Below are positions 1-21,123 of a stretch of 24,000 nt of DNA, in pieces. Every line of letters begins with the position of its first letter. The first letter of the stretch is position 1. Made by a program: the position numbers and the translations under genes. Under the pieces are notes generated by a model. It saw only the letters and a list, made by a program, of their open reading frames with translations, had not been told where the DNA came from and did no database searches. Source of the DNA: Youngiibacter fragilis 232.1 (GTDB lineage Bacteria; Bacillota; Clostridia; Clostridiales; Clostridiaceae); assembly GCF_000495435.3 (NCBI RefSeq), contig NZ_AXUN02000113.1:2828-26827 (forward strand), in the 5' to 3' direction.

Positions 1-280
1 CGAGGTAAGCACAGGACCGAAGCTTGTTGTGGCATCCCAGCCTACCCGTGGACTTGACATAGGAGCCATACAGTACATCAAGCAGGTCCTCCTGCAGCTT
101 AGAAGCGAAGGCAAGGCAGTCCTTCTCATATCCGCTGACCTTACCGACCTGTTCCAGATCAGCGACAGGATAGCAGTCCTTTATAAGGGAGAAGTCATGG
201 ACGTCAGGCCATCGGAAGAATACACCAATGAATCAATCAGCCTTTTGATGGCGGGAAAGAAGGAGGAAAAGAATGGATAA
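1..280 (+). CDS. ABC transporter ATP-binding protein, C-terminal part (gene starts upstream of the window); BMP/Nup-type nucleoside importer ATPase
   Basis: The frame is open from base 2 (EVSTGPKLVVASQPTRGLDIGAI...). It aligns with the C-terminus of the complete 501-aa double ATPase at 13338-14843, with 44 of 82 positions identical by hand count. The stop overlaps the next start (ATGGATAA at 273-280). Confidence 0.9.
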   Translation, partial: EVSTGPKLVVASQPTRGLDIGAIQYIKQVLLQLRSEGKAVLLISADLTDLFQISDRIAVLYKGEVMDVRPSEEYTNESISLLMAGKKEEKNG

Positions 281-1325
281 GGAATACAGGATAAAGCTGC
301 AGGGCCTTTTGTTCAATCTTGGCATTTCTGCATTTGCGATCCTTTTGTCCCTCGTTTTCTCCGCTCTCATCATGCTTGCTGTCGGGTATGATCCGGTGGC
401 GGCATACTCATCCATGCTTAACGGTTCATTCGGAAGCACCCAAGCCATTGCAAACACATTGAGCAAGAGCATACCGCTCATATTCTGCGGATTGTCATTC
501 TCATTCGCCGCAAAAAGCGGTGTCTTCAACATAGGAGGGGAAGGGCAGCTTAACATGGGAGCCCTTGCCAGTGCTGTTGTGGCACTCTCGATGCAGGGAA
601 TGCCCAGAGTCATTGTGATTGGTGCTTCCATACTTGCCGGATTCCTCGCCGGAGGGCTTCTTGGGGTGCTGCTGGGGCTTGCAAAATCCAAGCTTCACCT
701 AAATGAGGTAATCGTGGCAATAATGATGAATTATCTGGTAGCCCTCTTCTGCTCATACGCAGTCAGCGGACCGCTGAAGTACGAAGGTTCAGTGACTCCC
801 CAGACAGAGGCAATGGATAAGATATACATGTTCAGGAACCTTATTCCGAAATCGCAGCTGACCACTGCCCTGCTGCTGGCCCTGCTGCTGGCTCTGGTAA
901 TCTACCTGTTCTTCGCGAAGACGCGTGCAGGTTTCAACATAAGGGTTGTGGGTCAGAATCCAGATGCTGCTAAAGCCTCAGGAATAAAGGTCGGAGCAAT
1001 GATGGTAATCGCAATGGCAGTTTCCGGAGGAATCGCAGGCCTGGGAGGCATGACTGAGGTATTCGGAAAATACGGAAGGTTCATAGACGGATTTTCTCCA
1101 GGGTTCGGATTCACAGGAATTGCTGTTGCAGTTCTTGCAGCAAACAATCCATTCGGACTGATACTTACAGCCATACTTTTCGGAGCAATGGATGCAGGTG
1201 CCATGAAGATGAGCTATGTTGCGGGAATCTCAGCTACCATGGTACAGGTGATCCAGGGTATGGTAATACTCTTCGTCGCCACCCCGAATATCGCCCGTAA
1301 GATACTGTACAGGAAGGAGGCCTAA
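273..1325 (+). CDS. ABC transporter permease (BMP-family nucleoside/simple-sugar importer, NupP/YufP-like)
   Basis: 350-aa polytopic hydrophobic protein with NIGGEGQ and GFTGIAVA motifs typical of this permease family. It is a paralog of 14840-15898 and is translationally coupled to the upstream ATPase. Confidence 0.9.
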   Translation: MDKEYRIKLQGLLFNLGISAFAILLSLVFSALIMLAVGYDPVAAYSSMLNGSFGSTQAIANTLSKSIPLIFCGLSFSFAAKSGVFNIGGEGQLNMGALASAVVALSMQGMPRVIVIGASILAGFLAGGLLGVLLGLAKSKLHLNEVIVAIMMNYLVALFCSYAVSGPLKYEGSVTPQTEAMDKIYMFRNLIPKSQLTTALLLALLLALVIYLFFAKTRAGFNIRVVGQNPDAAKASGIKVGAMMVIAMAVSGGIAGLGGMTEVFGKYGRFIDGFSPGFGFTGIAVAVLAANNPFGLILTAILFGAMDAGAMKMSYVAGISATMVQVIQGMVILFVATPNIARKILYRKEA

Positions 1326-1329
1326 CAGA

Positions 1330-2241
1330 ATGGAGAACCTTACATATTTGTTTTCCTCGGATATGTTCCTTGCCACTCTCAGGCTGTCCATTCCACTGAC
1401 GCTGGCTGCGGTCGGTGCTACGATCTGCCAGAGAAGCGGCGTCATCAATCTTGGAGTCGAGGGAATGATGCTCCTTGGGGCATTCAGCGGAGTTCTTGGA
1501 GTTCATCTTACAGGAAGCCCGTACCTTGGTATAATGCTGTCGCTTGCGGTTGGAGCCCTCATTGGCTGGATATACGCGGTGCTCGTGCTGCATTACGATG
1601 CCAACCAAAGCGTCAGCGGCATAGGCCTGAACGTATTCGCATCCGGACTTACCATAGTCCTGACAAGGGCTGTATGGAAGAGTGACGGATTAAGCGGCAG
1701 CGTCAAGCAGGTCCCAAGCATAACAGTACCTGTACTGTCGGAGATTCCATTTCTCGGCTTGCTTTTCAAGAACCAGTCACCGTATCTTTATTTCACTGTA
1801 ATGATCGTAATCCTTGCCTGGTGGTTCATGTACAGGACAAAGCAGGGACTCAGGCTAAGGGCCATAGGCGAACATGATGAGGCAGCAGCGACAGTGGGAA
1901 TACCTGTCAAGCTGTACAGGTATAAGGCAATAATCGTCTGCGGAATGCTCTGCGCACTTGGCGGGTCATATCTTTCAATTGTCCAGAACAACAGGTTCGT
2001 GAAGGACATGGTAGCGGGACGAGGCTTCATGGCACTTGCCGCCAATATATTCGGCGGAGCAAATCCTCTGGGATCATGGGGTTCAAGCCTGGTATTCGCA
2101 TTCGCGCAGGCCGTAAGGATCAACCTGGAGGTGGACATACCTGACCAGTTCCTTCAGATGCTGCCCTATGCGCTCACGCTGTTCGTACTTCTTATCATTG
2201 GCCTGAAGAACAGAAAGAAGTACAAGGACAAAATCGCTTAA
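1330..2241 (+). CDS. ABC transporter permease (NupQ/YufQ-like second membrane subunit)
   Basis: 303-aa hydrophobic protein containing INLGVEGMML and GRGFMALAANIFGG. It is a paralog of 15900-16805 and starts 5 nt after the previous stop. Confidence 0.9.
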   Translation: MENLTYLFSSDMFLATLRLSIPLTLAAVGATICQRSGVINLGVEGMMLLGAFSGVLGVHLTGSPYLGIMLSLAVGALIGWIYAVLVLHYDANQSVSGIGLNVFASGLTIVLTRAVWKSDGLSGSVKQVPSITVPVLSEIPFLGLLFKNQSPYLYFTVMIVILAWWFMYRTKQGLRLRAIGEHDEAAATVGIPVKLYRYKAIIVCGMLCALGGSYLSIVQNNRFVKDMVAGRGFMALAANIFGGANPLGSWGSSLVFAFAQAVRINLEVDIPDQFLQMLPYALTLFVLLIIGLKNRKKYKDKIA

Positions 2242-2337
2242 GACCAAAACACGAAGCATCAAATGGATATATTGTAGGTTGAGCATCTGCTGTACCTGAG
2301 GTCATCAGATGCGTGCATGATGATTGGAGGATTTTAA

Positions 2338-3120
2338 ATGTCAATACTTAACAAGCATGAAACAACACTTGGACAAAAACAGTATCATATAGCGCTGGCA
2401 CCTGGAGACATCGGAGAATACGTGCTTCTGCCTGGAGACCCAGCCAGATCTGACCGTGTAGCCAAATATCTCGATAATGGAGTGCTCATGGCGAACAACC
2501 GCGAGCACAGGACCTTCACCGGAACCTACAAGGGAATAAAGATAAGTGTCACATCGACCGGAATGGGATGTCCGTCAGCAGCGATCGCTGCGGAAGAGCT
2601 CATCAACATAGGCGCAAAGACGCTGATAAGGATAGGAAGCTCAGCGGCGCTTGATCCCAGGATCAATATCGGAGACCTGATGATAAGCACTTCATCAATG
2701 AAGAATGAAGGAACCTCGAAATTCTATGTTCCAGATTGCTTCCCAGCGGCACCTGATTTTGAGTTTACACACGAACTTATTATGACAGCCAAGGAAATGA
2801 TGGATGAAAGTGAACAAAAAGTATATATTGGAGTTAGTGCAACTGATGATGCGTTCTATGGCGAAACACCTGAATTCCTAGAGAGCCTGAGAAAGCTCAA
2901 GGTCATGAATATAGAGATGGAAGCATCAGCACTCTATACAATAGGACACCTAAGGGATGTAAGGGTAGCATGCATATGCGGCTGTTCGGGAAATCTCACA
3001 AACAGCGAAGTAATCTACACCAAAAAGAACGAAAGGCTTGCTGAAGCCTGGGATAAGGAAATCCAGGTAGTACTGGAAACAATAGCAAGGTTCGAGGAAG
3101 CAAAAAAAGCTAAAAAATAA
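2338..3120 (+). CDS. Nucleoside phosphorylase, PNP_UDP_1 / uridine phosphorylase family (non-canonical base pocket)
   Basis: LPGDPARSDRVA...NREH...STGMGCPSAAIAAEELINIG...LIRIGS...NIEMEASAL aligns by eye along the length of E. coli Udp. A GGAGG RBS lies upstream. The Udp FYPGQER segment is FYGETPE here (2854-2874). Confidence 0.85.
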   Translation: MSILNKHETTLGQKQYHIALAPGDIGEYVLLPGDPARSDRVAKYLDNGVLMANNREHRTFTGTYKGIKISVTSTGMGCPSAAIAAEELINIGAKTLIRIGSSAALDPRINIGDLMISTSSMKNEGTSKFYVPDCFPAAPDFEFTHELIMTAKEMMDESEQKVYIGVSATDDAFYGETPEFLESLRKLKVMNIEMEASALYTIGHLRDVRVACICGCSGNLTNSEVIYTKKNERLAEAWDKEIQVVLETIARFEEAKKAKK

Positions 3121-3155
3121 CATCGGAATTCGATTGATCAATTAAGGAGAGTCAC

Positions 3156-3899
3156 ATGGGAGAAAGAATAGGACAGGAAGATAGAGGAAAGACGCCGGTT
3201 TTTGTAGCAGTCTACGACCGGTTATATGAAATGGTGACTAATGGAACCTATCCTGCTGGGAAAGCACTCCCGCCGGAGCCGAAGCTTGCTGCCCTGCTTG
3301 ACGTAAGCCGTGAAACACTCCGTAAAGCCATGAGGCTCCTTGAAGAGGACGGACTTCTGGAGAAAGTGAAGGGTAAAGGGAATTTTGTTGTGGACCTTAA
3401 CAAACCAGGGGTTTCAAGTCTGGAAAAGCTCGGGAACCCCGTCCGCAAATGCATACAGGTGCCAATTGACGAGGATGTTGAAGTGGAAGTGCGCCTGCAG
3501 TCATCAAGCGATTACGAGCAAAAGCTTTTCAATCGTGAGACGAAGACTGCACTTGCGATTGACAGGTGGTATAGGAGCAACGGAAAGATAGTCGCCTATT
3601 CGCTGACACTTGCACCGATAGAATCAGTTCTGACTCTTGGACTTGACCTTTCAAACAAGTCCGAGGTGCTTGATTTCCTGGAGAACACGGCTTACGAGAT
3701 TGCTAGCCGTGCCCATATCAAGGTGAAGACAACCTGGGTAGGAAAGTTCATAAGCGACCGTTATGTACTTAGCGAGGATGAAGAACTGAGCCTCATACAG
3801 GAGAACCTCTATACTGAAGATGAATTTACACTTCTGATCCACAACAAGCACTACATATTGCCTGAAGTCTGTTCGATCGAGATCAATGCGACGCATTGA
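3156..3899 (+). CDS. GntR-family transcriptional regulator (HutC-like, C-terminal UTRA-type effector domain)
   Basis: N-terminal winged HTH (LPPEPKLAALLDVSRETLRKAMRLLEEDGLLEKVKGKGNFV). 247 aa. AAGGAGA RBS. Paralogous in position and sequence to 17658-18461. Confidence 0.85.
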   Translation: MGERIGQEDRGKTPVFVAVYDRLYEMVTNGTYPAGKALPPEPKLAALLDVSRETLRKAMRLLEEDGLLEKVKGKGNFVVDLNKPGVSSLEKLGNPVRKCIQVPIDEDVEVEVRLQSSSDYEQKLFNRETKTALAIDRWYRSNGKIVAYSLTLAPIESVLTLGLDLSNKSEVLDFLENTAYEIASRAHIKVKTTWVGKFISDRYVLSEDEELSLIQENLYTEDEFTLLIHNKHYILPEVCSIEINATH

Positions 3900-3946
3900 C
3901 CAAAGCGATGATCTGAACATTCTGGCGGAATTGGAGAGAGGTAAGG

Positions 3947-5299
3947 ATGGATAATACACTACTGATAAAAAATATAAGGCATCTCGTGACCTGCGATGAC
4001 AAGGATCGCATCCTTGAGGATACCAACCTTTTTGTAAGGGATGGAGTCATCGTATCTATAGGGGACTCACAGCCTGAGGCATCCAGAGTCATAGACGGCT
4101 CGGACCTTGCGGTATATCCGGGACTAGTGAACACGCATCACCACCTGTACCAGATACTGACGAGAAATCTGCCTCAGGTACAGAACCTTGAACTGTTCGA
4201 CTGGCTGACAAAGCTCTACCAGATATGGAAGAACCTGACAACTGACGCCATCTATGACAGCTCAATGGCAGGCATGGGTGAACTTGCGAAATTCGGATGC
4301 AGCACTGTGTTCGACCACCATTATGTTTTCCCGAAGGAAAGCAATGATTTCCTGTCAGCTCAGTTTGAAGCGGCAGGAAAACTCGGAGTCAGGATGGCAG
4401 TATCCAGAGGAAGCATGGACCTGAGCGAAAAGGATGGCGGCCTTCCACCTGATTCGGTTGTTCAGACTATCGATGAAATACTCAGAAGTTCAGAGAGAGC
4501 CGTAAACCAGTTCCATGACCCGAAGGAATACTCAATGAAACAGATTGTGCTTGCACCATGCTCACCCTTCAGCGTAACAGGAGACCTCATGAAGGAGTCA
4601 GCGAAGCTTGCAAGGGACCTTAAGGTAAGGCTCCATACCCATCTGGCGGAGACAATGGATGAAGAGGTCTATCTGAAGGAGAAGCTTGGCATAAGGCCGC
4701 TTGAATATATGGAGAGACTTGGCTGGATCGGTTCCGATGTGTGGTTTGCTCATGGCATCCACTTCAATACCGATGAACTGAAGCATCTTGCTGAGACAGG
4801 TACCGGAGTAGCTCATTGTCCCGCATCAAACATGAAGCTTTCATCAGGAGTAGCAAGGATACCTGAGATGCTGGCATTAGGGGTTCCGGTAGGCCTGGCA
4901 GTAGATGGCAGTGCCAGCAATGATGGTTCAAGCCTCATGGAGGAAATGAGGATAGCATACCTTCTTCACAGGCTAACCTCAGGAGACAAGGCTCCAAGCG
5001 GATACGAAATACTGAAGATAGCTACCAAAGGAAGTGCCAGGTTACTTGGACGACCTGAGCTGGGACATCTTGCCCCAGGTATGGCAGCTGATTTCTTTGC
5101 AGTAAAGGAAAGCCGGCTTGAATTTGCAGGAGCTGCCTTTGATGTCAGTAGCATGCTGTCAACAGTCGGAATCAAGGCTCCTGTGGACTATACGGTAGTT
5201 GCAGGAAAAGTCATAGTCGACAAAGGGATACTTGTGGGTGTGGATGAAGAGGCCCTTACAAGGCGGATCGCTAAGCACTCAAAAGGGATGATGCAGTAG
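3947..5299 (+). CDS. Amidohydrolase-superfamily aminohydrolase, 8-oxoguanine deaminase / chlorohydrolase-like (COG0402 group)
   Basis: Metal-binding NTHHHLYQ near the N-terminus. RGSMDLSEKDGGLPPDSVVQ, HTHLAET, HGIH and the DGSASND aspartate are in the canonical order for this deaminase subgroup. 450 aa. Confidence 0.8.
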   Translation: MDNTLLIKNIRHLVTCDDKDRILEDTNLFVRDGVIVSIGDSQPEASRVIDGSDLAVYPGLVNTHHHLYQILTRNLPQVQNLELFDWLTKLYQIWKNLTTDAIYDSSMAGMGELAKFGCSTVFDHHYVFPKESNDFLSAQFEAAGKLGVRMAVSRGSMDLSEKDGGLPPDSVVQTIDEILRSSERAVNQFHDPKEYSMKQIVLAPCSPFSVTGDLMKESAKLARDLKVRLHTHLAETMDEEVYLKEKLGIRPLEYMERLGWIGSDVWFAHGIHFNTDELKHLAETGTGVAHCPASNMKLSSGVARIPEMLALGVPVGLAVDGSASNDGSSLMEEMRIAYLLHRLTSGDKAPSGYEILKIATKGSARLLGRPELGHLAPGMAADFFAVKESRLEFAGAAFDVSSMLSTVGIKAPVDYTVVAGKVIVDKGILVGVDEEALTRRIAKHSKGMMQ

Positions 5300-5330
5300 A
5301 AACATGCATATGAATACAAAGACTGAACAG

Positions 5331-5354
5331 GAAGCGTGGTCTTGGCCACGCTTC
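5331..5354 (+). other. 9-bp perfect RNA hairpin between the amidohydrolase and the first hydrolase gene (possible weak terminator or mRNA stabiliser)
   Basis: GAAGCGTGG-tcttgg-CCACGCTTC followed by ttcttct. It lies inside the 5' extension of the ORF-track model 5336-6400, which argues for the 5378 start. Confidence 0.4.
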
Positions 5355-5377
5355 TTCTATCAGAGCTGGAGGAAACG

Positions 5378-6400
5378 ATGTACGAAAGAAATAGAAAAAA
5401 AGTGATCCTTGATGTAGATACGGGTTCGGATGATGCTATAGCCATAATGGTGGCACTGAAGTCAGAAAAGCTGAAGGTCGAAGGGATCTGCACAGTCTGG
5501 GGTAACCTTGGAGTAGAGCAGACCACGTTCAATACGCTTGCGGTATGCGAAGTACTGAACATGGATGTGCCTGTCTATGCCGGGTGTCCGCATAGCATGG
5601 TGAAGGACCTGACACCTGGACGTGTTCCTGAAAGTGACATAAAACCTATAATAATAGATGGCAGGGAGCTTAGCCTTCATAGTGAGAGGTTAAGCGGATT
5701 GCCTGATACAAATAAGACCAGGGAAGCACTCCACGCGGTTGAGTTCTATCATAAGTACCTGAAGGAAACCACCGAACCTGTGACAATAGTCGCGGTAGGT
5801 CCCCTCACAAATCTTGGATTCCTGTTCAGGATGGCTCCTGAGCTTGCTGATAAGGTAGATGAACTGATAATAATGGGTGGAGGGGTTGAAGTGTCCAATG
5901 TCAGCGAAGGCGGTGAAGCCAATGTCTGGCATGATCCCGAGGCTCTCCAGATCATCCTTGAAGCCGGACTGAATCCGCTTCTTGTGACCCTTGATGCAAC
6001 ATTCTCCGTTCCGCTTACAGACTCGGATTGCGATGTGCTTGAATCGCTGAATACCTTCGAAGGAAGGTTCGCAGCCAGCGTGGTTCGCCAGAGGATAGAA
6101 TATGAGTCCGTGAAGCATGCGACAAGGGGAGCCTGGTCTCCTATCCACGATGCCCTCGCAGCATGCGCTTGCATCGACAGATCCGTCCTTACAGAGGTAT
6201 TGACTGAGAACTGCAGGGTGGAGTGCACCGGCATATGTGACGGTGAACTGCTCCTTGACAGGAGGGCAAAGCCTGCGTCTGCCAATGCAACGATTGCTGT
6301 AAAAGCTGACAAGGATAAGTTTTTTGGGATGCTTTGCAGCCTGTTTTCAGGTAATGGAAGGGAATCCCTGAAATCTCACGAGGAGGAAATCACGGCTTAG
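5378..6400 (+). CDS. Nucleoside hydrolase (IU-NH family, ribonucleoside N-ribohydrolase)
   Basis: N-terminal DVDTGSDDAIAI (DxDxxxDD Ca-binding fingerprint). Also GNL...NTL, GPLTN, a conserved NVWHDPEA and a later HD. I prefer the ATG at 5378 (GGAGGA 6 nt upstream) over the GTG at 5336. Confidence 0.85.
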   Translation: MYERNRKKVILDVDTGSDDAIAIMVALKSEKLKVEGICTVWGNLGVEQTTFNTLAVCEVLNMDVPVYAGCPHSMVKDLTPGRVPESDIKPIIIDGRELSLHSERLSGLPDTNKTREALHAVEFYHKYLKETTEPVTIVAVGPLTNLGFLFRMAPELADKVDELIIMGGGVEVSNVSEGGEANVWHDPEALQIILEAGLNPLLVTLDATFSVPLTDSDCDVLESLNTFEGRFAASVVRQRIEYESVKHATRGAWSPIHDALAACACIDRSVLTEVLTENCRVECTGICDGELLLDRRAKPASANATIAVKADKDKFFGMLCSLFSGNGRESLKSHEEEITA

Positions 6401-6417
6401 TCCATGAATCAATACAT

Positions 6418-7392
6418 ATGAAAAAGAAAGTGATCCTAGACGTTGATACAGGTTCGGATGATGCGATCGCCATCATGCTTGCAATGCTATCACCGGAAAT
6501 CGAGGTCCAGGCCATATGCACCTGCAGCGGCAATGTGGACATAGGACATACCACTGACAACACTTTAAGGCTTCTCTCGAGAATGGGAAGGAACATTCCG
6601 GTATATCGGGGGCTCCCTGAACCTCTGGTCAAAAAGCTCCATAATGAGAGAAGTGTTACGAAGAAGCTTGAGGCTGTCATAGACGGTAAGGTTGCCAGGA
6701 TGCATGACGACCAGCTGAATCTCCCTGATTCAATATACAGGGAGCAGGAGATACCTGCTGTCTTCTATTACAAGGAAGCGCTGACAAATGCGGAGGACCC
6801 GCTTAATATAATAACAACCGGACCGTTGTCGAATCTCGCCACAGTGCTTTCACTCTGGCCGGATCTCGCAGGCAGGATAGGCAGCCTGACCATTATGGGC
6901 GGAGGACACAAGATATACAACAATAACTATGCCGAAGGAAACTTCTGGCATGACCCGGAAGCGGCCCAGATAGTTCTGAATTCAGGTATAGTGCCAACAC
7001 TGGTGCCGCTTGATGCAACCCACCAGGCAATAATAACAAGTGATGAAATCGAAGTGCTGAGGAGCCAGGGCAATTTCTGCAGCGAATTTGCGGCAGGACT
7101 TCTGAAACAGCGCATGAAGCTCCATACGGCAAACCAGCCGCTGCATCTTCCTGATTCAGCAACCATGCATGATGTTGTAGCTGTTGCAGCCTTCCTTGAT
7201 CCAGAGGTGTTGATGGATGTCAGGGATGTACGCTGCGCTATTGGATTTACAGGCTCTGCCGAAGGACACTGTGCCATAGACAGGAGGGAATCCAGGGAAA
7301 AGCCAAATTGCCGTTTCGCAATGTCAGCTGACAGGGAAAGGTTCGTGAAGAGATTCCTTGAAACCTTCGCCAAAGCAAAGGACATACAGTAG
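6418..7392 (+). CDS. Nucleoside hydrolase (IU-NH family), tandem paralog of the preceding gene
   Basis: Has the same KKVILDVDTGSDDAIAIM N-terminus, plus GNV...NTL, GPLSN, NFWHDPEA and MHD. 324 aa. Confidence 0.85.
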   Translation: MKKKVILDVDTGSDDAIAIMLAMLSPEIEVQAICTCSGNVDIGHTTDNTLRLLSRMGRNIPVYRGLPEPLVKKLHNERSVTKKLEAVIDGKVARMHDDQLNLPDSIYREQEIPAVFYYKEALTNAEDPLNIITTGPLSNLATVLSLWPDLAGRIGSLTIMGGGHKIYNNNYAEGNFWHDPEAAQIVLNSGIVPTLVPLDATHQAIITSDEIEVLRSQGNFCSEFAAGLLKQRMKLHTANQPLHLPDSATMHDVVAVAAFLDPEVLMDVRDVRCAIGFTGSAEGHCAIDRRESREKPNCRFAMSADRERFVKRFLETFAKAKDIQ

Positions 7393-7439
7393 GAGATATT
7401 CCAACAAGAACTGACAAATTTGTAATTAAGGAGGTACCC

Positions 7440-8330
7440 ATGAAGATAGTAGTTGTAGGGAGCCTGAACATGGACTACATTTTGCAGGTTCCGCATATCC
7501 CGAAAGAAGGCGAGACCATCCTTTCAACAGAAACAGATACATCTCTGGGAGGCAAGGGCCTGAATCAGGCTGTTGCAGCTGCCCGTTCGGGCGCCGAGGT
7601 AGCGATTATAGGAGCCATCGGTGAGGATGAAGATGGCAAAATCATGAAGGAACTCCTGGTGAAGGAAGGGATTGACCATGAAGGGCTTGATGAACAGCCA
7701 GGGCCTTCAGGCAAGGCATACATATCCATAGATGCAAAGGGTCAGAACACCATCATAGTATCTCCGGGAGCGAATTTCAGGCTTACAGAAGGATGGGTCG
7801 ACGAGCATAGGAAAGTTTTAGAGGATGCTGAGTACTGCATCATGCAGATGGAGGTACAGCTTCCCGTAATCTATTCGACGCTTAGGCTGTGCAGGGAAAT
7901 GGGAGTTAAGGTAATATTCAATCCCGCGCCTGTGAATGCCGCATTCGACAGAAGCTATCTTGGGTTTGTCGACTATCTTGTCGTCAACGAGACAGAACTC
8001 ATACTTCTGAGCGGAGGCGAGGAGGATCCTGAGAAGGCCATATCGAAGCTGCTGGCTGAGGGCGTAAGGAACATAATCTACACCATGGGGTCAGACGGGT
8101 CCAGATTCTGCAGCAGGGAGCTTGACATCAGGATACCTGTTTACAAGGTGAAGGCTGTGGATACGACTGCCGCAGGCGATACATTCATCGGTGCTTTTGC
8201 CAGCCAGTTCGATGGCAGCAACCATACCGAAGCGATGACCTACGCCTCAAGGGCAGCGGCACTTGCTGTCACCAGGGAAGGCGCCATAGGCTCGATACCG
8301 AGGAAGGAAGAGGTTGACCGGATGGCCTGA
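7440..8330 (+). CDS. rbsK: Ribokinase (PfkB family)
   Basis: MKIVVVGSLNMDY, GGKGLNQAVAAAR and the C-terminal DTTAAGDTFIGAF signature with a following TREGA anion-hole region. AAGGAGG RBS. Confidence 0.9.
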   Translation: MKIVVVGSLNMDYILQVPHIPKEGETILSTETDTSLGGKGLNQAVAAARSGAEVAIIGAIGEDEDGKIMKELLVKEGIDHEGLDEQPGPSGKAYISIDAKGQNTIIVSPGANFRLTEGWVDEHRKVLEDAEYCIMQMEVQLPVIYSTLRLCREMGVKVIFNPAPVNAAFDRSYLGFVDYLVVNETELILLSGGEEDPEKAISKLLAEGVRNIIYTMGSDGSRFCSRELDIRIPVYKVKAVDTTAAGDTFIGAFASQFDGSNHTEAMTYASRAAALAVTREGAIGSIPRKEEVDRMA

Positions 8331-8503
8331 GCCCAGTAGAAATGCCGGAATTGTGCAACTATGGAAAAAGGACTTGTTTTCGCAAAAAAAGCTGAAAATA
8401 AGTCCTTTTTTGTGCCATGTGGCATATTCTTATACCGTCTGCAATTGTTATCATATAGTCAATACAACGGGGAATTGATAATATAACCATTATGGAGGGA
8501 AAC

Positions 8504-10024
8504 ATGAAAAAAGACCTTGAAACACTGATCCAGCAGGCACAGCAGATTGCTGCAAATTCCGCACTTACCCACGAGCAGGCTACAAACAGCCTTGCTTCAC
8601 TTCCTGGACAGTTTGCGAACGTGTTCGATTTTCCTGAAGGATTCGAGGAAATGCTCGAAGAGGGACTGCTCTGCAACCTTAGTGAAGGATTTTTGCCATA
8701 TGCCCCGAGATACATACTGCCTGATTACCAGAAGCTGATGGATGAAGGCTGCCAGTTCCTTAGGCTGAAGCCGCCGACGACACTTTCTGAAGCCATACTG
8801 ACACTTGAGATATTCTACAGGCATGTGCCGTCAGTGACCCATTATCCGGTTTACCTTGGCAGGGTTGACAAGATGCTTGAGCCCTTCATAGACGGTGTAA
8901 GCGAAGAAGAGGCTAGGCGTGAGATAAAGAACTTCCTGTTCTTCCTTTCAAGGAGCATTCCTGATTCGTACTGCCACATGAACATAGGGCCTGAAGAGAC
9001 AAAGGCCGGCAACTACATACTGGATGCCGAGATGGAGCTTCAGGAAGCCATCCCTTCGATCACCATGCTTTACGATGAAAAGGTAACCTCCGATGATTTC
9101 TCAGAGAAGGCACTGAGCTGCGCGCAGCTTTGCGCAAAGCCAAGCTTTGCCAACTACAACGATTATCAGGAAGCCAATCCTTTCCCGATAGGAATCGCAA
9201 GCTGCTACAACGCACTGCCTCTTGCTGGAGGAGCGTTTACGCTCTCAAGGGTTATGATCAGCAGGATTGCTGACAAGGTCAATAACAGCGATGAATTCTT
9301 CGAGTTCCTTCCAAAGGCTGTGAACACTCTTTGCACATTTATGGACGAGAAGATCAGGTACCTTGTGGAGGACAGCCATTTCTTCACCACGAACTTCCTC
9401 GTGAAGGAAGGCTTCATAAAGCTTGAGAACTTCACAGGCATGGTTGGAATAGTTGGCCTGAACGAGTGCGTGAATACGCTCCTTGCAAAGGATGGAATTG
9501 ATGGAAGGTATGCCCAGTGCAAGGAAGCAGATGATCTGTCGCACAGGATACTTGCTGCAATGAACCAGCATTTGAATTCATATGAATCAAAATACTGCGA
9601 TGTTACAGGGAACCACTTCCTTCTTCATGCTCAGGTAGGGATAGCGGAGGACATCGGCATCACCCCGGGAATCCGCATAGCAATCGGCGAGGAGCCGGAC
9701 CTCTATACTCACCTCAAGCATGAAAACAAGTTCCAGAAGTACTTTCCGAGCGGAGTCGGTGACATATTCCCCTTTGATGAGACTGCAAAGAACAACGTGG
9801 GAGCCATACTTGACATAGTAAAGGGAAGCTTTTCACAAGGAATGCGTTATTTCTCAACCTACTCCGATACCTGCGACGTTGTAAGGGTAACAGGCTACCT
9901 TGTAAAGAAGTCTGACATAGAGAAGCTTTCAAGGGGCGAGGCAGTAGGACAGGCCAATGCCACATGGGGATACCTGGCATCGAAGAACCAGCATGCCCTT
10001 GAGCGCAAGGTAGAGTCCCTATGA
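8504..10024 (+). CDS. yjjI: YjjI-family glycyl radical enzyme (function unknown)
   Basis: About 506 aa, short for a glycyl radical enzyme (GRE). C-terminal glycyl-radical fingerprint VVRVTGYLV, with the Gly codon at 9893-9895. Candidate Cys loop GIASCYNALPLAGG, with the Cys codon at 9203-9205. ATGA overlap with a dedicated activase. The ATG at 8504 has a GGAGG 5 nt upstream; the ORF-track start at 8492 has none. Confidence 0.75.
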   Translation: MKKDLETLIQQAQQIAANSALTHEQATNSLASLPGQFANVFDFPEGFEEMLEEGLLCNLSEGFLPYAPRYILPDYQKLMDEGCQFLRLKPPTTLSEAILTLEIFYRHVPSVTHYPVYLGRVDKMLEPFIDGVSEEEARREIKNFLFFLSRSIPDSYCHMNIGPEETKAGNYILDAEMELQEAIPSITMLYDEKVTSDDFSEKALSCAQLCAKPSFANYNDYQEANPFPIGIASCYNALPLAGGAFTLSRVMISRIADKVNNSDEFFEFLPKAVNTLCTFMDEKIRYLVEDSHFFTTNFLVKEGFIKLENFTGMVGIVGLNECVNTLLAKDGIDGRYAQCKEADDLSHRILAAMNQHLNSYESKYCDVTGNHFLLHAQVGIAEDIGITPGIRIAIGEEPDLYTHLKHENKFQKYFPSGVGDIFPFDETAKNNVGAILDIVKGSFSQGMRYFSTYSDTCDVVRVTGYLVKKSDIEKLSRGEAVGQANATWGYLASKNQHALERKVESL

Positions 10025-10860
10025 AAGCCCCTGTCAACCACATCATAGACTCAAGCTTCATAGACGGTCCTGGAAACAGGACGGTGATATTCTTCCAGGG
10101 CTGCAACTTCAACTGCAAGTATTGCCACAATCCGGAGACAATAAACCTATGCATCAATTGCGGCCTTTGCGTACCGGGATGCCCTTCGGGAGCACTTGAG
10201 ATGGTTGAAGGCAAGGTTGAATGGGATGAAAAAAGGTGCACTGATTGCGGGGCATGCTACAAGAACTGCCCTTACTCGGCGACACCCAGAGTGAAGGAAA
10301 TGACGGTTGAAGGTGTAATGGAGAGGGTGAAGGCAAATATGCCATTCATCAGGGGGATCACAGTTTCCGGAGGTGAGTGCTCCCTTCAAAGGGATTTTGT
10401 TGTGGAACTCTTCAGGCAGGCTAAGGCGATTGGCTTGGGCACACTCATGGACAGCAACGGGGGACTTCCAATAGCCTTCGATGAGGAACTAATGTCTGTG
10501 ACAGACGGTGTGATGCTGGATATAAAGGGGACTGACCAACTCTTCCATATGGAGCTTACCGGCCGAAGCAATGACATGGTACTTAACAATGCCGTGGAAC
10601 TGGCAAGGCTGGGGAAGCTCACAGAGATAAGGACAGTGGTGCTGCCGGACAATCCGTTCAGCCGTCTCACAGTTGTAAATGCAGGAAATATCCTGGAACC
10701 ATTCCTCAGATGCAGCAAGGTTACCTACAGGCTCATAAAGTTCAGACCAATCGGTGTCAGGGGAGAGGCTCTGACCTGGAAAATGCCGGGACAGGCCCAG
10801 ATGGAGGAGCTCAAGTCACTTGTGGAGGACAAGGGATTCCACAGGGTCATCATAACCTGA
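10021..10860 (+). CDS. yjjW: YjjW-type glycyl radical enzyme activase (radical SAM with two extra ferredoxin-like 4Fe-4S motifs)
   Basis: CNFNCKYC (CX3CX2C, 10102-10125), then CINCGLCVPGC and CTDCGACYKNC, then GITVSGGEC (SAM-binding GGE). 279 aa. The start overlaps the yjjI stop. Confidence 0.85.
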   Translation: MKAPVNHIIDSSFIDGPGNRTVIFFQGCNFNCKYCHNPETINLCINCGLCVPGCPSGALEMVEGKVEWDEKRCTDCGACYKNCPYSATPRVKEMTVEGVMERVKANMPFIRGITVSGGECSLQRDFVVELFRQAKAIGLGTLMDSNGGLPIAFDEELMSVTDGVMLDIKGTDQLFHMELTGRSNDMVLNNAVELARLGKLTEIRTVVLPDNPFSRLTVVNAGNILEPFLRCSKVTYRLIKFRPIGVRGEALTWKMPGQAQMEELKSLVEDKGFHRVIIT

Positions 10861-10904
10861 CCCCATGTTGAATCTAGGGTAGCAAGACTTATAAAAAATA
10901 AATG

Positions 10905-10950
10905 GCACTGTCACAGAAGGCTCATGACCTCTGGACAGTGCTTTTCTTTT
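10905..10950. terminator. Rho-independent terminator between the convergent yjjW and crp-like genes (probably bidirectional)
   Basis: GCACTGTC...GACAGTGC outer stem (10905-10912 / 10934-10941) with an inner CAGA-GG/CC-TCTG extension. CTTTTCTTTT follows it and an A-run (ATAAAAAATAAA) precedes it. Confidence 0.7.
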
Positions 10951-10963
10951 CCTTGATGAAAAA

Positions 10964-11686
10964 TCAGCCAAATCCATGCTCTTTAGTGTAAGAATCATAC
11001 CTGTCCCTGAGCCTCTGGAATGCGGAGCCTGTGACGACTATCTTGCCATGGCTTCTCTTAATAAGGCCTTCTTCCTCAAGCTGTTCGAGTTGGCGGTAAA
11101 GGGTGCGGCTGCTTATGTTCATAAGCTCTGCGATTTCAGCCTTGTTTGCCTCGATCACATGAGGAAGTAGCTTTCCGGAGCAATTCTCGAACAGGAAGAT
11201 TATCAGGTTCTCATATGGTGTGTTAAGGGTAAGCTGGTCGGTCCTATCAAGCATCCTGGCTGTGAACCTTGCAAGAAATGACAAGGCTGCCAGTGCGATC
11301 TCATGGTTGTTCCTGATTGCACGGAGAAAGAAGGCTGGGCGGATCACCGCGCAATGTGCGCGGGTTTCTGCCTGGAGTGTTACTCCATGCCCCTTTGTTC
11401 CTGTAAGGGACTCATAAAGGCCATAGATCTGGGGAGCCTCTGATATGCCGCTCCTTATGCTCATGCCGCCTGAGCTGTATTTGAAGACCGAAACCTGACC
11501 TTCGATAAGTACCATGAGTCTCTCAACCGGGGCGCCGATATAGGAGAGATATTCACCCTTCTCGAACCATATAAACTGAATGTCCTCATAGGCAACAGTA
11601 TTCAGGAAGGTTTTATCGAGTTTGACTTTGATGTCTCTGGACATTACGGCTTCAAGGAGCCTGGCCAGCTTCTCCTCATTTGTCAC
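10964..11686 (-). CDS. Crp/Fnr-family transcriptional regulator (cNMP-binding-like domain plus C-terminal HTH)
   Basis: 240 aa. C-terminal HTH KAEIAELMNISSRTLYRQLEQLEEEGLI. GTG start with an AGGAGG 8 nt upstream. Only two Cys (AHCAV, ENCSG), so there is no FNR-type Fe-S ligand set. Confidence 0.8.
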   Translation of the reverse strand: MTNEEKLARLLEAVMSRDIKVKLDKTFLNTVAYEDIQFIWFEKGEYLSYIGAPVERLMVLIEGQVSVFKYSSGGMSIRSGISEAPQIYGLYESLTGTKGHGVTLQAETRAHCAVIRPAFFLRAIRNNHEIALAALSFLARFTARMLDRTDQLTLNTPYENLIIFLFENCSGKLLPHVIEANKAEIAELMNISSRTLYRQLEQLEEEGLIKRSHGKIVVTGSAFQRLRDRYDSYTKEHGFG

Positions 11687-12016
11687 AGCTTACACCTCCT
11701 TCTGGATATGGAGCTTCAGCACCTGTTATAACCAGAGTATCATAAACCTAGTAAATTGACCACAGAGGTGATTTCCAGGGAAATTACATGCTCTCCTGAA
11801 GAGATGCACTGCCTGAACAGGGCTCTATAAAATCAGTAAAAGCTGGATGGCCAGAATTATAATGTAATATTATGATATCGGTTTAATTTCAATTCGAATA
11901 ATTATTTTGAAATATTCTTAAATATAAGGCCCAGCAAATGCATGAGTGTGTGTTTATCTATGGTACTGAAGGAATATCATAGGAATCTGAAGCAAAGAAA
12001 ATTTTAGGTTTTATCA

Positions 12017-12098
12017 TTGTTAATGTTTACATGTACAACAACGTGTGGTATATTTAACGCAAGTTGTTAAACAAGTTACTAAACATGTACAACAAACG
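12017..12098 (+). repeat. Imperfect direct repeat block: TTGTTAA...ACATGTACAACAA(A)CG occurs twice, overlapping the promoter and the 5' UTR (candidate operator pair)
   Basis: The exact 13-mer ACATGTACAACAA is at 12029-12041 and 12083-12095, 54 bp apart. TTGTTAA is at 12017 and 12064. An 11-bp palindrome TTGTTAAACAA is at 12064-12074. Confidence 0.55.
12026..12054 (+). promoter_or_regulatory. Sigma-A type promoter for the second nucleoside ABC operon (extended -10)
   Basis: TTTACA (12026-12031), a 17-bp spacer, then TGgTATATT (TG at 12046-12047, -10 at 12049-12054). It lies about 60 bp upstream of the lipoprotein start, in an AT-rich intergenic region. Confidence 0.6.
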
Positions 12099-12115
12099 AC
12101 AGGGGGAAAATAAAC

Positions 12116-13210
12116 ATGAAGAAAACGATTGCCATCCTTGGTACATTGCTGCTGTCCGCCTCAATTTTAGCAGGCTGCGGAAGCTCAGCGCCAACAACTC
12201 CTACCGCAGGCCCCACCACACCGTCCCAGTCACAGACTGCAGCTCCAAAGGACTTCAAGGCAGGCATAATATTCACTGAAGCTGGCCTTGGAGGACAATC
12301 CTTCAATGACCTTGCATTCGAAGGAGTCAAGAAGGCTGCCGCTGACCTTGGCATCAAATATGACTATGTTGAGCCGAAGTCAGTTTCTGACGAGGCGATC
12401 GTACAGGAAGACATGGCCTCATCAGGTGAGTATGACATAATCATATGCGTGGGCGCTGAACAGATCGATGCACTTAAGATGGTGGCTGCAAACTATCCTG
12501 AGCAGAAGTTTGCACTTATAGACGCCAATCTTGAACTGCCGAACGTCGCATGCTATACGAGCAAAGAGCAGGAAGGTTCTTTCATGGCTGGAGCACTCGC
12601 TGCACTCATAAAGCAGGAGAAGGCAACAGACAAGGTTGGAGATGGAAAGACAGTCGGTGTCATGGTTGGAGTGAATAATCCGCTTCTTAACAGATTTGTT
12701 GCAGGCTATACTGCAGGTGCCAAGTACATCAACCCTGAGCTTGAAGTGCTTGTTGACTATGTCGGAGGCTTCGGAGACCCAACTACTGCAAAGAACATAG
12801 CCACTACCTTCAATTCGAAGGGTGCTGATGTAATATTCCATGCTGCAGGAGCTTCAGGAATGGGACTCTTCCAGGCAGCACAGGAAAAGGGGTTCGTTGC
12901 TATCGGTGTCAACCTCAACCAGAATGGTGTCGCTCCTGACAACATAGTTGCCAGCATGATGAAGAGGGTAGACTCCAGTGCATATAATGCAATTGAAACC
13001 ACTCTGAACGGGGAATTCAAGGCCGGGCTCAAGGTTATGGGACTTGCTGATGAAGGCGTAGGCCTCAATATGGAAGGAAGCAACATAAAGCTGCCTGAAA
13101 GCGTGACAAAGAAGCTTGATGAGATCAAAGAGCTTGTGGTTTCAGGGAAACTGGTTATACCAGCTGCGATCGAAGAGGTCAATCCATTCCTGGAAGCGAA
13201 CAAGAAATAA
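12116..13210 (+). CDS. BMP-family ABC transporter substrate-binding lipoprotein (PnrA/NupN/Med-like, nucleoside-binding)
   Basis: Signal peptide with lipobox ILAGC (Cys codon 12176-12178) and a Thr/Pro-rich linker. BMP-family body (AGIIFTEAGLGGQSFND, GVNNPLLNRFVAGY). GGGGG RBS. Confidence 0.9.
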   Translation: MKKTIAILGTLLLSASILAGCGSSAPTTPTAGPTTPSQSQTAAPKDFKAGIIFTEAGLGGQSFNDLAFEGVKKAAADLGIKYDYVEPKSVSDEAIVQEDMASSGEYDIIICVGAEQIDALKMVAANYPEQKFALIDANLELPNVACYTSKEQEGSFMAGALAALIKQEKATDKVGDGKTVGVMVGVNNPLLNRFVAGYTAGAKYINPELEVLVDYVGGFGDPTTAKNIATTFNSKGADVIFHAAGASGMGLFQAAQEKGFVAIGVNLNQNGVAPDNIVASMMKRVDSSAYNAIETTLNGEFKAGLKVMGLADEGVGLNMEGSNIKLPESVTKKLDEIKELVVSGKLVIPAAIEEVNPFLEANKK

Positions 13211-13337
13211 TCTGACAATACTGATGGGCGGTTTGGGCTCCGGAGTGTTCTGCTGGCTGCAGGATAATTGAGGATATCCCGTACCGCCTGTTTCTGAATT
13301 AAGGCAGCCATACTATACCAAGAACGGAGGGAAACTG

Positions 13338-14843
13338 ATGCCGATAATTGACATGAGGCAGATAACGAAGCGTTTTCCGGGTGTTGTCGCAAACGACAAG
13401 GTGGATTTTCAGGTAGAAAAGCAGGAGATACATTGCCTTCTGGGTGAGAACGGATCCGGAAAGACTACGCTTATGAATGTGCTCTTTGGCCTGTACCATC
13501 CGGAAGAGGGAGAAATATACGTAAAGGGAGAGAAGGTGCGCATAAGCAATCCCAATGATGCCTACAAGCTGGGCATAGGAATGGTGCACCAGCACTTCAT
13601 GCTGGTAAACCAGATGACTGTGCTTGAAAACATCATTCTGGGCAATGAGTGCGGGAGCTTCTTCCTGGACAGGAAAGAGAGCGAAGCTGCGGTCAGGGAC
13701 CTGATTACGAGGTTCAACTTCAAGCTTGACCTCAACCAGAAGATAGCTGACCTTTCAGTCGGAATGAAGCAGAGGGTTGAAATCGTGAAGACCCTTTATC
13801 GCGGGGCCGATATAATCATCCTTGATGAGCCCACTGCGGTCCTTACTCCTCAGGAGGTGGCAGACCTTTTTGTCATTCTCCATCAGCTGCGCAGAGATGG
13901 TAAAACTATCATATTCATAACCCACAAGCTTAATGAGACCATGGAGATGTCTGACAGCGTGACAGTCCTCAGGAAGGGTGTCAAGGTTGCCGACCTGAAG
14001 ACCAGGGATGTGAATCAGAACGACCTTGCGGCACACATGGTGGGCAGACAGGTTGAGCATATTGTGAGTGACAGTGTGGAAAGCTATGGTGAGGTTGTGC
14101 TTTCGATAAAGGACCTGGTCTTGAATGACAAGACAAGGATTCCTGTGAACCTTTCTGTCCGCGCAGGAGAGATCCTTGGCATAGCAGGGGTAGAAGGCAA
14201 CGGACAGCAGGAGCTTGAGGAGCTTATCATTGGAACCATGCCGGTGCGTTCCGGTAAAATCGAGATCAACGGGCAGGACATTACCAGCAAGCCTGTAAAG
14301 GACAGGAAGGACCTTGGTATAGGCTACATTCCAGCGGACAGGCACAAGAACGCCATCCTCAGCAACTTCTCAATAATTGAGAATTACCTGCTCGGTTACC
14401 ACAAGGACAAGGACTATATAAAGAATGGATTCATAGACTTCAGGAAGCTGGAGAGCGACGCTGACAGGTTCGTCACGGAATTCAATGCGAAGGTTGCCGA
14501 CATCGGAGACCCCATTTCTTCACTCTCCGGAGGAAACCAGCAGAAGATTGTCTTAAGTCGTGAGGTAAGCCATGATCCTATACTGGTTATTGCTGCACAA
14601 CCTGTGAGAGGGCTTGACATAGGCGCCATCGAGTTCATACATAAGACGCTTCTGAGACTGAGGCATGAGAAGAAGGCAATCCTGCTCATATCTGCAGAGC
14701 TTTCGGAGGTAATGAACCTTTCTGACAGGATAGCGGTACTTTATGAAGGCCAGGTAAGCGCAGAATTCCCAAGAGGCAAGTACAACCAGGAGCAGATCGG
14801 ACTGTTCATGGCAGGAAGAACAGAGAAGGAGGTTGAAGTATGA
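13338..14843 (+). CDS. ABC transporter ATP-binding protein with two fused ATPase domains
   Basis: Walker A GENGSGKTT, signature LSVGMKQR, Walker B IIILDEPT, and a second-domain signature LSGGNQQK. 501 aa. GGAGGG RBS. Confidence 0.92.
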   Translation: MPIIDMRQITKRFPGVVANDKVDFQVEKQEIHCLLGENGSGKTTLMNVLFGLYHPEEGEIYVKGEKVRISNPNDAYKLGIGMVHQHFMLVNQMTVLENIILGNECGSFFLDRKESEAAVRDLITRFNFKLDLNQKIADLSVGMKQRVEIVKTLYRGADIIILDEPTAVLTPQEVADLFVILHQLRRDGKTIIFITHKLNETMEMSDSVTVLRKGVKVADLKTRDVNQNDLAAHMVGRQVEHIVSDSVESYGEVVLSIKDLVLNDKTRIPVNLSVRAGEILGIAGVEGNGQQELEELIIGTMPVRSGKIEINGQDITSKPVKDRKDLGIGYIPADRHKNAILSNFSIIENYLLGYHKDKDYIKNGFIDFRKLESDADRFVTEFNAKVADIGDPISSLSGGNQQKIVLSREVSHDPILVIAAQPVRGLDIGAIEFIHKTLLRLRHEKKAILLISAELSEVMNLSDRIAVLYEGQVSAEFPRGKYNQEQIGLFMAGRTEKEVEV

Positions 14844-15898: not shown

Positions 15899-15899
15899 A

Positions 15900-16805: not shown

Positions 16806-16810
16806 TGATA

Positions 16811-16839
16811 TTGACAACTGAACATGGTCATATAATAAT
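16811..16839 (+). promoter_or_regulatory. Candidate internal promoter upstream of the second nucleoside phosphorylase
   Basis: A perfect TTGACA (16811-16816) and a perfect TATAAT (16831-16836) are only 14 bp apart. The alternative is TTGACA-N17-AATAAT. The spacing is suboptimal in either reading. Confidence 0.35.
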
Positions 16840-16857
16840 GTGTAATGGAGGATAACA

Positions 16858-17631: not shown

Positions 17632-17657
17632 TGGCATAATCTATAGCAAATAAGGAT

Positions 17658-18461: not shown

Positions 18462-18504
18462 AATCACACAAGTCAATATTCAGTTTGAAGAAATAATGGA
18501 TTGA

Positions 18505-19107: not shown

Positions 19108-19126
19108 TTCAGGGGGGATGCAGGGT

Positions 19127-20065: not shown

Positions 20066-20087
20066 CTGATTTGAAGGAGTGAAGAAA

Positions 20088-21116: not shown

Positions 21117-21123
21117 GTGAGGG

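Follow-up and report, generated by a model that had tools for sequence, protein, structure and literature searches.

In Escherichia coli, the deoCABD, udp, cdd, rihABC and rbsK genes follow one catabolic logic, in which the glycosidic bond of a nucleoside is cleaved by phosphorolysis or hydrolysis, the pentose is captured and the base or nucleoside is deaminated. The same logic is found in a 24,000-nucleotide stretch of the Youngiibacter fragilis 232.1 genome (contig NZ_AXUN02000113.1, positions 2,828 to 26,827 of the forward strand), referred to here at its full length as the window, in which genes for nucleoside uptake, cleavage and deamination adjoin yjjI and yjjW, encoding a glycyl radical enzyme (GRE) and its activase. 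Compared with E. coli, the window has neither DeoB nor DeoC, its first phosphorylase (UP1) lies outside the Udp and DeoD equivalogs, and base deamination falls to an enzyme of the 8-oxoguanine deaminase type in place of canonical GuaD. The main point of interest of the locus is the link between YjjI and nucleosides.

The importers have the architecture common to Bmp/PnrA-type nucleoside ATP-binding cassette (ABC) importers (B. subtilis nupNOPQ type, T. pallidum PnrA/TmpC and Borrelia BmpD), namely a Bmp lipoprotein, a duplicated-domain ATPase and two BPD_transp_2 permeases. Unlike these known systems, the window has the importer twice, as paralogues that each come with a separate NP-I phosphorylase and GntR regulator, and related genomes carry the GRE and its activase inside the transporter operon. 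The deaminase shares metal ligands, the catalytic Gln, Glu, His and Asp, flanking Trp residues and the active-site Cys of the eta-2 helix, in an APCSPFSV motif, with a cluster of enzymes acting on 8-oxoguanine, isocytosine or N2,N2-dimethylguanine (Pa0142, 3HPA, Vcz/URA3, NdmH and AtzB; residue roles from PMC13054789 and PMC6186785). This AtzB cluster stands apart from the true guanine deaminases and prefers guanine analogues over guanine, its members converting 8-oxoguanine, isocytosine, N2,N2-dimethylguanine or, poorly, guanine (PMC13054789, PMC6186785). The window enzyme has Cys-Ser like 3HPA, whereas the signature of the dimethylguanine hydrolases (NdmH) is Cys-Gln...Asn (PMC13054789). It lies inside a nucleoside operon of a strict anaerobe, whereas its Paenibacillus counterpart is stand-alone or riboswitch-controlled (PMC10556655).

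For the GRE, the comparison is with class III ribonucleotide reductase (RNR; NrdD with its activase NrdG) and with PflD and YbiW of E. coli. YjjI shares with NrdD the fold, a glycyl radical site near the C terminus and a finger-loop cysteine, but is ~13% identical, ~200 residues shorter and without ATP-cone or zinc site, and YjjW, unlike NrdG, has two extra ferredoxin-type clusters. PflD and YbiW, formerly orphan GREs, have now been crystallised with sugar phosphates (1,5-anhydroglucitol/mannitol-6-phosphate), and their activases share the ferredoxin-insert type of YjjW; they have the PFL fold and ~800 residues, whereas YjjI has 506 residues and is closer to NrdD. YjjI is still called uncharacterised in a preprint dated August 2026, a role in nitrogen metabolism was guessed from co-expression in an older paper, and no functional characterisation of YjjI, YjjW, DUF3029 or PF11230 was found in the literature.

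A probable nucleoside-scavenging island around yjjI-yjjW

The region is most likely a nucleoside-scavenging island of separate units around yjjI-yjjW, in which YjjI would act in a redox-neutral manner on the pentose part of its substrate; we consider this reading probable, if by a modest measure. In unit A, nucleosides would be taken up by an ABC importer with a BMP lipoprotein and cleaved either by UP1, giving base and ribose-1-phosphate, or by two N-ribohydrolases (NH1 and NH2), giving base and ribose. Ribokinase would convert free ribose to ribose-5-phosphate, which enters the pentose-phosphate pathway, and the amidohydrolase would strip the 2-amino group from a guanine-type base to leave a xanthine-type base, with release of ammonia. 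Unit B (8504-10860) would consist of yjjI-yjjW with its own promoter under the control of a Crp-family regulator (unit C), and unit D of the paralogous importer 2 together with a Udp-like phosphorylase and a GntR regulator of its own. The radical step of YjjI would take place on a nucleoside, ribose or pentose phosphate and not on the purine base. The analysis shows gene identities, operon boundaries and the conservation of neighbourhoods, whereas the substrates, the regulator-operator pairs and all YjjI chemistry are deduced.

An initial annotation of this DNA had proposed a complete route from uptake through N-glycosidic cleavage to ribose capture, with the genes in the order importer, phosphorylase, GntR, amidohydrolase, two N-ribohydrolases, ribokinase and GRE. 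The genes do make up a coherent route of this kind, and the listing of open reading frames (ORFs) and the profile searches recovered all the genes that had been named, on the + strand and in the same order. Both phosphorolytic and hydrolytic cleavage are indeed encoded, by UP1 and the two IU_nuc_hydro genes. The absence of phosphopentomutase and deoxyriboaldolase, also claimed, was confirmed by tblastn: representatives of DeoB and DeoC, and likewise of Cdd and Add, found no homologue in the 24-kb window, which by this search contains no deo-type deoxynucleoside catabolic operon, defined by phosphopentomutase and deoxyribose-phosphate aldolase.

ORF calling was crude, with longest-ORF starts taken mechanically. 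The start of NH1 is most likely the ATG at 5378, since the Y. multivorans gene encodes 340 residues, and that of yjjI most likely the ATG at 8504 behind a GGAGGG ribosome-binding site, which gives YjjI 506 residues, as in its relatives. The features of the nucleoside region are as follows.

2-280, + strand: C-terminal end of the ABC ATPase of importer 1 (matches NCBIfam sugar/BMP-type ABC ATPase C-termini); the start of the gene is further upstream, outside the window
273-1325 and 1330-2241, + strand: two BPD_transp_2 permeases of importer 1 (PF02653, E 2e-43 and 2e-41)
2338-3120, + strand: UP1, atypical NP-I family phosphorylase (PNP_UDP_1, PF01048)
3156-3899, + strand: GntR1, GntR-type (HutC-like) repressor (PF00392)
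3947-5299, + strand: guanine-analogue deaminase, an amidohydrolase (NF006055, 578 bits, cut-off 532)
5378-6400 (longest ORF from 5336), + strand: NH1, IU-NH family N-ribohydrolase (PF01156, E 7e-67, 227 bits)
6418-7392, + strand: NH2, IU-NH family N-ribohydrolase (PF01156, E 2e-68, 232 bits)
7440-8330, + strand: ribokinase (TIGR02152, 310 bits, cut-off 300)
8365-8410, + strand: intrinsic-terminator-like hairpin and U-run (17-nt arms, 94% complementary, minimum free energy z-score -5.3)
8411-8426: palindrome TGTGCCA-NN-TGGCATA in the yjjI promoter region, with arms invariant and centre variable in three relatives
8504-10024 (longest ORF from 8492), + strand: YjjI-family GRE (TIGR04040, 613 bits, cut-off 498; PF11230, 629 bits)
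10021-10860, + strand: YjjW, GRE activase of the radical SAM type (TIGR04041, 351 bits, cut-off 250), with a 4-nt overlap with yjjI
10904-10941: terminator-like hairpin and U-run between the converging yjjW and regulator genes
10964-11686, - strand: Crp/Fnr-family regulator (cNMP_binding and HTH_Crp_2)
12116-18461, + strand: module 2, identified by profile searches, with Bmp lipoprotein, ABC ATPase, two permeases, UP2 and GntR2

Conservation of YjjI with nucleoside genes

Neighbours within 10 kb of YjjI were clustered de novo in 80 loci, the best 80 of 595 matches (47-76% identity, mostly from Clostridia), and the counts are not phylogenetically independent. YjjW was present in 72 of the 80, an ABC ATPase in 48, and a Bmp lipoprotein and permeases in 34 each. 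Udp passing TIGR01718 and a Crp-family regulator homologous to that at 10964-11686 were each found in 25, followed by cytidine deaminase (Cdd; 14), phosphopentomutase (DeoB; 13), DeoC (12), COG0402 deaminases (10) and adenosine deaminase (Add; 8). The Udp adjoining YjjI in Lachnospiraceae scores 329 bits on TIGR01718, with a cut-off of 280. The order Bmp-(Udp)-YjjI-YjjW-ATPase-permease-permease, in a row on one strand, occurs in 20 of the 80 loci and places the GRE pair inside a transporter operon, while in other loci YjjI and YjjW flank udp-cdd-deoB on both sides. At least one nucleoside gene accompanies YjjI in 23 of the 41 fully flanked loci.

Conservation of YjjI extends from E. coli to Clostridia of the gut and of digesters. 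In E. coli K-12, yjjI-yjjW and deoCABD are divergent, 258 bp apart, and a chromatin immunoprecipitation peak of CRP has been reported in the yjjI/deoC intergenic region (PMC4287617). In Edwardsiella, yjjI-yjjW lies between deoCABD, which is divergent, and nupC. At least five different arrangements tie YjjI to nucleoside genes, in Clostridia, Christensenellales, a spirochaete and Enterobacterales. Since the bases released differ by context (uracil, hypoxanthine or xanthine) and the pentose is common to all, the pentose or nucleoside is favoured as the substrate of YjjI. Together, the nucleoside ABC operons of 20 genomes, deoCABD in E. coli and the two hydrolases in this clade narrow the candidate substrates to a short list of nucleosides, ribose or deoxyribose phosphates and modified pentoses.

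The full array was found in the window and its metagenome twins. Locus L160, with a YjjI 78% identical to that of the window, has BMP-ATPase-permease-permease-UP1-GntR-deaminase-NH-NH-YjjI-YjjW without ribokinase. Y. multivorans (YjjI 94% identical) is collinear with window positions 3156-18514 at 75-83% nucleotide identity; it has no deaminase gene, and importer 1 and UP1 are not at this locus. A further relative, with a YjjI 82% identical, has NH-NH-YjjI-YjjW-Crp. The pair of hydrolase genes directly upstream of yjjI-yjjW is the invariant core in all four close relatives. Ribokinase is variable, being present in Y. multivorans and absent from L083 and L160, and importer 1/UP1 and the deaminase are gained or missing together. 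Retention of the array, ribokinase excepted, in the relative with 78% identity, and the recurrence of individual pairings in unrelated contigs, indicate that the array is more than chance. Incidental insertion of the deaminase gene, suggested by its absence from Y. multivorans, was rejected on the grounds that independent contigs carry the UP1-deaminase pair and that the 78% relative has the full array.

Sequence and predicted structure of YjjI and YjjW

YjjI has a glycyl motif VVRVTG464YLVK and a cysteine, Cys234 in GIASCYN, which are invariant across 62 sequences including that of E. coli; Cys234 is the only invariant cysteine. A preprint reports in vivo labelling of Gly465 of E. coli YjjI with a radical probe. 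No solved protein similar to YjjI by sequence was found. An AlphaFold (AF2) model with a pLDDT of 92 had its best solved folds among class III RNRs (Foldseek E 8e-18 to 1e-12, TM 0.62-0.74), with PFL-type GREs ranking below them. The Pfam NRDD match of 41 bits is above its cut-off, and on the NrdD equivalog TIGR02487 YjjI reaches 30 bits against a cut-off of 326. The fold alone is held in common. In a weak hhalign alignment to E. coli NrdD (probability 23%), NrdD Cys175 falls in a gap and YjjI has Ala in place of Met382, two residues before the thiyl Cys. This tentatively suggests that YjjI is without the reducing Cys and the Met of NrdD. It also has no ATP-cone and no zinc cysteines, with a single C-terminal Cys.

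YjjW combines a CNFNCKYC motif with two ferredoxin-type Cys clusters. The pairing of the two proteins is thus mixed, YjjI being closest in fold to NrdD and YjjW being of the ferredoxin-insert type that is typical of PFL-like eliminase GREs. From these features we infer that the YjjI reaction would be a redox-neutral radical step rather than an RNR-type reduction.

Transcription units and their predicted regulation

The cognate BMP lipoprotein gene of importer 1 (BMP1) had been expected upstream of the window, and it was found just upstream in contigs with an identical UP1 (L085-L088), which encode the full 502-residue ATPase and a 367-residue Bmp lipoprotein. In the source contig, TAGACATGTCTA-type palindromes are present in the promoter region upstream of BMP1, and this promoter/operator block is the same as that directly before GntR1-NH-NH-RbsK in Y. 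multivorans. No GntR1-type operator of the form TAGACATGTCTA occurs inside the window, which favours control from one region upstream. Between 1 and 8360 the + strand has no convincing terminator. Given the shared block, the lack of an internal GntR1-type site and the lack of a convincing terminator, BMP1 through rbsK (to 8330) is probably one GntR1-controlled operon, with its first two genes upstream of the window, and GntR1 is the probable regulator of this whole upstream operon. An attenuator was considered in the 2242-2337 spacer and dropped, since this stretch shows no significant structure (z +0.7). Control by a purine, 2'-deoxyguanosine, xanthine or 8-oxoguanine riboswitch was likewise unsupported, as a scan of the whole window against Rfam at gathering thresholds found no riboswitch or other RNA family.

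The initial annotation had included the GRE in one composite locus with the route, but the two are probably not co-transcribed: between ribokinase and the GRE lie a strong terminator-like hairpin and a conserved candidate operator. A hairpin with a T-run is at the same place in the rbsK-yjjI gap of Y. multivorans and L083. The palindrome at 8411-8426 has no other exact match in the window and shows the 5-6-5 geometry of the Crp family (TGTGC-N6-GCATA). It was not found upstream of yjjI in 73 more distant loci and is a candidate operator of the adjacent Crp-family regulator in close relatives only. This regulator has two Cys residues, neither of them N-terminal, and does not have the FNR cysteine cluster. 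Based on the hairpin at 8365-8410 (z -5.3), the conserved palindrome and the hairpin and U-run after yjjW, yjjI-yjjW is probably a transcription unit with its own promoter, controlled by the neighbouring Crp-family regulator.

Enzymes of the upstream operon

NH2 carries DVDTGSDD, and in the NH1 ORF the first 30 residues finish with DVDTG, in accordance with the DVDTG..DD calcium motif. Both hydrolases score far below the RihA, RihB, RihC and UriH equivalog cut-offs and are equidistant from the solved structures of RihA, RihB and IU-NH.

UP1 falls below every NCBIfam equivalog cut-off, including those for Udp (202 bits, cut-off 280) and DeoD (157 bits, cut-off 230). Udp is recognised by a specific insertion with Gln166 and Arg168 and by Arg223 (E. 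coli numbering). In UP1 a 13-residue deletion at the Udp-specific insertion leaves Gln166 and Arg168 without counterpart, and Gly-Asn is aligned to DeoD Asp204-His205 and to Udp Asn-Arg223; judged by these residues, UP1 is neither a canonical Udp nor a canonical DeoD. UP2 of module 2 scores 214 bits on TIGR01718 (cut-off 280) and keeps the Udp-specific insertion without Arg223. It is closest to the S. pyogenes Udp 3QPB, as is the Udp adjoining YjjI in Lachnospiraceae. A metagenome scan gave UP1 orthologues of 55-88% identity in 53 loci, in all of which the FYGE and sgN motifs are invariant. If these motifs are analogous to Glu201 and Asn243 of the trimeric 6-oxopurine phosphorylases, the substrate of UP1 could be of the 6-oxopurine type, which is no more than a lead.

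Among the 20 UP1 loci with full flanks, a Bmp importer is a partner in 15 and a COG0402 deaminase of any kind is nearby in nine; like the YjjI loci, this set was ranked by similarity and is phylogenetically clustered. An MtaD-like COG0402 deaminase is present in eight, an 8-oxoguanine-type deaminase in four (10 of 53 overall) and YjjI in four (8 of 53 overall). The strings BMP-ATP-prm-prm-MtaD-like-UP1-GntR1-deaminase and YjjI-YjjW-NH-UP1-deaminase recur in metagenome loci. UP1 orthologues adjoin YjjI in Blautia, Christensenellaceae and a spirochaete, Pleomorphochaeta, with 72-77% identity to UP1, and the YjjI proteins of the same loci (L002, L011-L014) are 51-59% identical to that of the window. 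UP1 is therefore better conserved across phyla than YjjI, a hint that its module has spread horizontally or that UP1 is under very strong constraint. The second, MtaD-like type of COG0402 amidohydrolase is often encoded directly upstream of UP1 in Bmp operons (L011-L014, L098, L099, L105, L106 and others). It resembles MtaD/DadD, reaches none of the NCBIfam cut-offs and shares ~27% identity with the window deaminase. Its pairing with UP1 suggests deamination of a nucleoside followed by phosphorolysis, with adenosine-type or 5'-modified nucleosides as substrates.

The window deaminase matches PDB entries 3HPA (425 bits, ~55% identity) and 7WW2 (376 bits; molecule name 8-oxoguanine deaminase). 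Its motifs NTHHHLYQ, APCSPFSV, HTHLAE, AHGIHF and VDGSASND align with 3HPA, and the active-site stretch is identical. The initial annotation had placed the enzyme in a subgroup for substituted or oxidised purines, and membership of the AtzB cluster is supported by NF006055 and the 3HPA-identical active-site stretch, in a family that is promiscuous and also converts guanine and isocytosine (PMC6186785). A guanine-type base is a well-supported prediction for its substrate, an oxidised or damaged base is not, and a purine (guanine-type) branch in unit A is plausible. Enzymes of this kind act on free bases, which fits a place downstream of glycosidic cleavage. Orthologues of 65-70% identity are widespread in Clostridia and strict anaerobes. 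A xanthine/uracil-family permease is adjacent in two of the three Clostridia that were looked up, and the third orthologue, in the purinolytic C. cylindrosporum, lies behind a GntR regulator and a membrane protein. With this nucleobase-permease context, an ordinary imported guanine-type base would fit equally well. Current models mislabel two poorly annotated families, the UP1 phosphorylase clade and the clostridial '8-oxoguanine deaminase' clade.

Alternative explanations for the locus

The initial annotation saw in the locus a system for damaged or modified purine nucleosides, such as 8-oxoguanosine, with the GRE serving the anaerobic disposal of a urate- or xanthine-like base. This is unlikely as an account of the region, although several of its elements have support: the deaminase passes the 8-oxoguanine deaminase model and shares ~55% identity and its active-site stretch with 3HPA, enzymes of its cluster favour analogues of guanine over guanine itself (PMC13054789), UP1 falls outside canonical Udp and purine nucleoside phosphorylase and recurs with the 8-oxoguanine-type deaminase, and clusters of NH, ribokinase and GntR are known for 2'-O-methylnucleosides in aerobes (PMC6278475). 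The conversion of guanine and isocytosine by the same family (PMC6186785), the wide occurrence of orthologues in strict anaerobes, with a nucleobase permease adjacent in two of the three looked up, and the lack of an 8-oxoguanine or purine riboswitch in the window argue in the other direction, as does the GRE itself. It is a separate unit with an NrdD-like fold, and elsewhere it is accompanied by Udp, Cdd, DeoB, DeoC and nucleoside importers, and by deoCABD in E. coli, rather than by genes of purine-ring catabolism; disposal of the deaminated base is therefore not favoured as its function. We give a similarly low probability to ordinary broad-specificity scavenging of nucleosides for carbon and nitrogen, in which the deaminase would be a guanine deaminase and yjjI-yjjW would be unrelated and nearby by chance. 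Every enzyme except the GRE does come from a well-known salvage or catabolism family, and the GRE forms its own unit. Such chance proximity would also suit the YjjI loci that have no nucleoside genes within 10 kb (38 of 80) and Proteus, where yjjI is not adjacent to deo. It is difficult to reconcile with yjjI-yjjW lying between the binding-protein and ATPase genes of a nucleoside ABC operon in 20 genomes and flanking udp-cdd-deoB elsewhere, with the at least five arrangements across Clostridia, Christensenellales, a spirochaete and Enterobacterales, or with the NH-NH pair before yjjI in all four close relatives.

A third explanation, which we regard as quite improbable, makes YjjI an RNR-like reductase at the level of nucleotides or nucleosides, supplying deoxy-sugars for DeoC or for the salvage of DNA precursors. 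The fold closest to NrdD, the Pfam NRDD match above its cut-off (41 bits) and the presence of DeoC in 12 loci and in E. coli would agree with this, whereas the single invariant cysteine, with no counterpart for the bottom-face Cys175 and Met382 of NrdD, the absence of an ATP-cone and of C-terminal zinc-binding cysteines, the TIGR02487 score of 30 bits against 326 and an activase of the ferredoxin-insert type that is not NrdG-like would not. The preferred reading, of an island in which YjjI acts on the pentose part, has points against it as well. The profile alignment between YjjI and NrdD is weak, which makes the missing reducing cysteine tentative; the hairpin at 8365-8410 may permit read-through; and the specificities of NH1, NH2 and UP1 are not readable from sequence. 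The ribose-1-phosphate released by UP1 needs a phosphopentomutase, which is absent from the window. Among the YjjI loci, the 38 of 80 in which no nucleoside gene was recognised within 10 kb (18 of the 41 fully flanked ones) and the Proteus yjjI without deo adjacency also weigh against it.

More specifically, YjjI/YjjW might provide an unrecognised radical step of anaerobic nucleoside catabolism on the pentose, for example a redox-neutral, RNR-like C2' elimination, an idea that we put forward tentatively and with considerable doubt. Example substrates for such an elimination would be a nucleoside, ribose, 2'-O-methylribose or a pentose phosphate. If a pentose radical step is correct, the window operon, with its importer, UP1, deaminase and two hydrolases, would supply the YjjI substrate from non-canonical nucleosides, and a function would be assigned to one of the last orphan GREs of E. 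coli. Whether anaerobes recover modified purines from RNA turnover depends on the real substrates of the UP1 and clostridial deaminase clades; should these be ordinary guanosine and uridine, the locus would be a routine salvage island with its value left in the YjjI link only.

Second module and flanking genes

The module 2 proteins are 30-55% identical to their counterparts in module 1, and the two permeases of importer 1 share 48% and 54% identity with those of importer 2. The second Bmp gene lies at 12116-13210. The nearest solved binding proteins are the Bmp-family lipoproteins 4PEV, 7X0R, TmpC/PnrA 2FQW and BmpD, all of which we take to be nucleoside binders. An exact direct repeat, ACATGTACAACAA, is present at 12029-12041 and 12083-12095, 54 bp apart, its copies spanning the predicted promoter (TTTACA-17-TATATT) and leader of the second Bmp gene. 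The repeat has an ACATGT core in common with the TAGACATGTCTA sites of module 1 and is a candidate GntR2 operator.

The genes to the right of 18461 are unrelated to the nucleoside modules. A strong terminator-like hairpin with a 15-bp stem and a T-run (19067-19099) precedes an L-lactate dehydrogenase gene, which is followed by an ABC_sub_bind-type ABC transporter (19118-22889), and an aldo/keto reductase is encoded on the - strand at the window end (23070-23999). No link of these three to the nucleoside genes was seen. Collinearity with Y. multivorans ends at 18514, and an 88-residue ORF at 18538-18804, which joins an IS605 OrfB-type helix-turn-helix to part of a DNA/RNA non-specific endonuclease domain, resembles the remains of a mobile element and lies at the island's right edge. 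On the other side, L085 has a transposase-like gene (1-1103, faint HTH_Tnp_1 match) just upstream of BMP1, and three other contigs with the same locus break off ~270-325 bp before BMP1, as they would at a repeat. Insertion sequences may lie at both ends of the nucleoside island.

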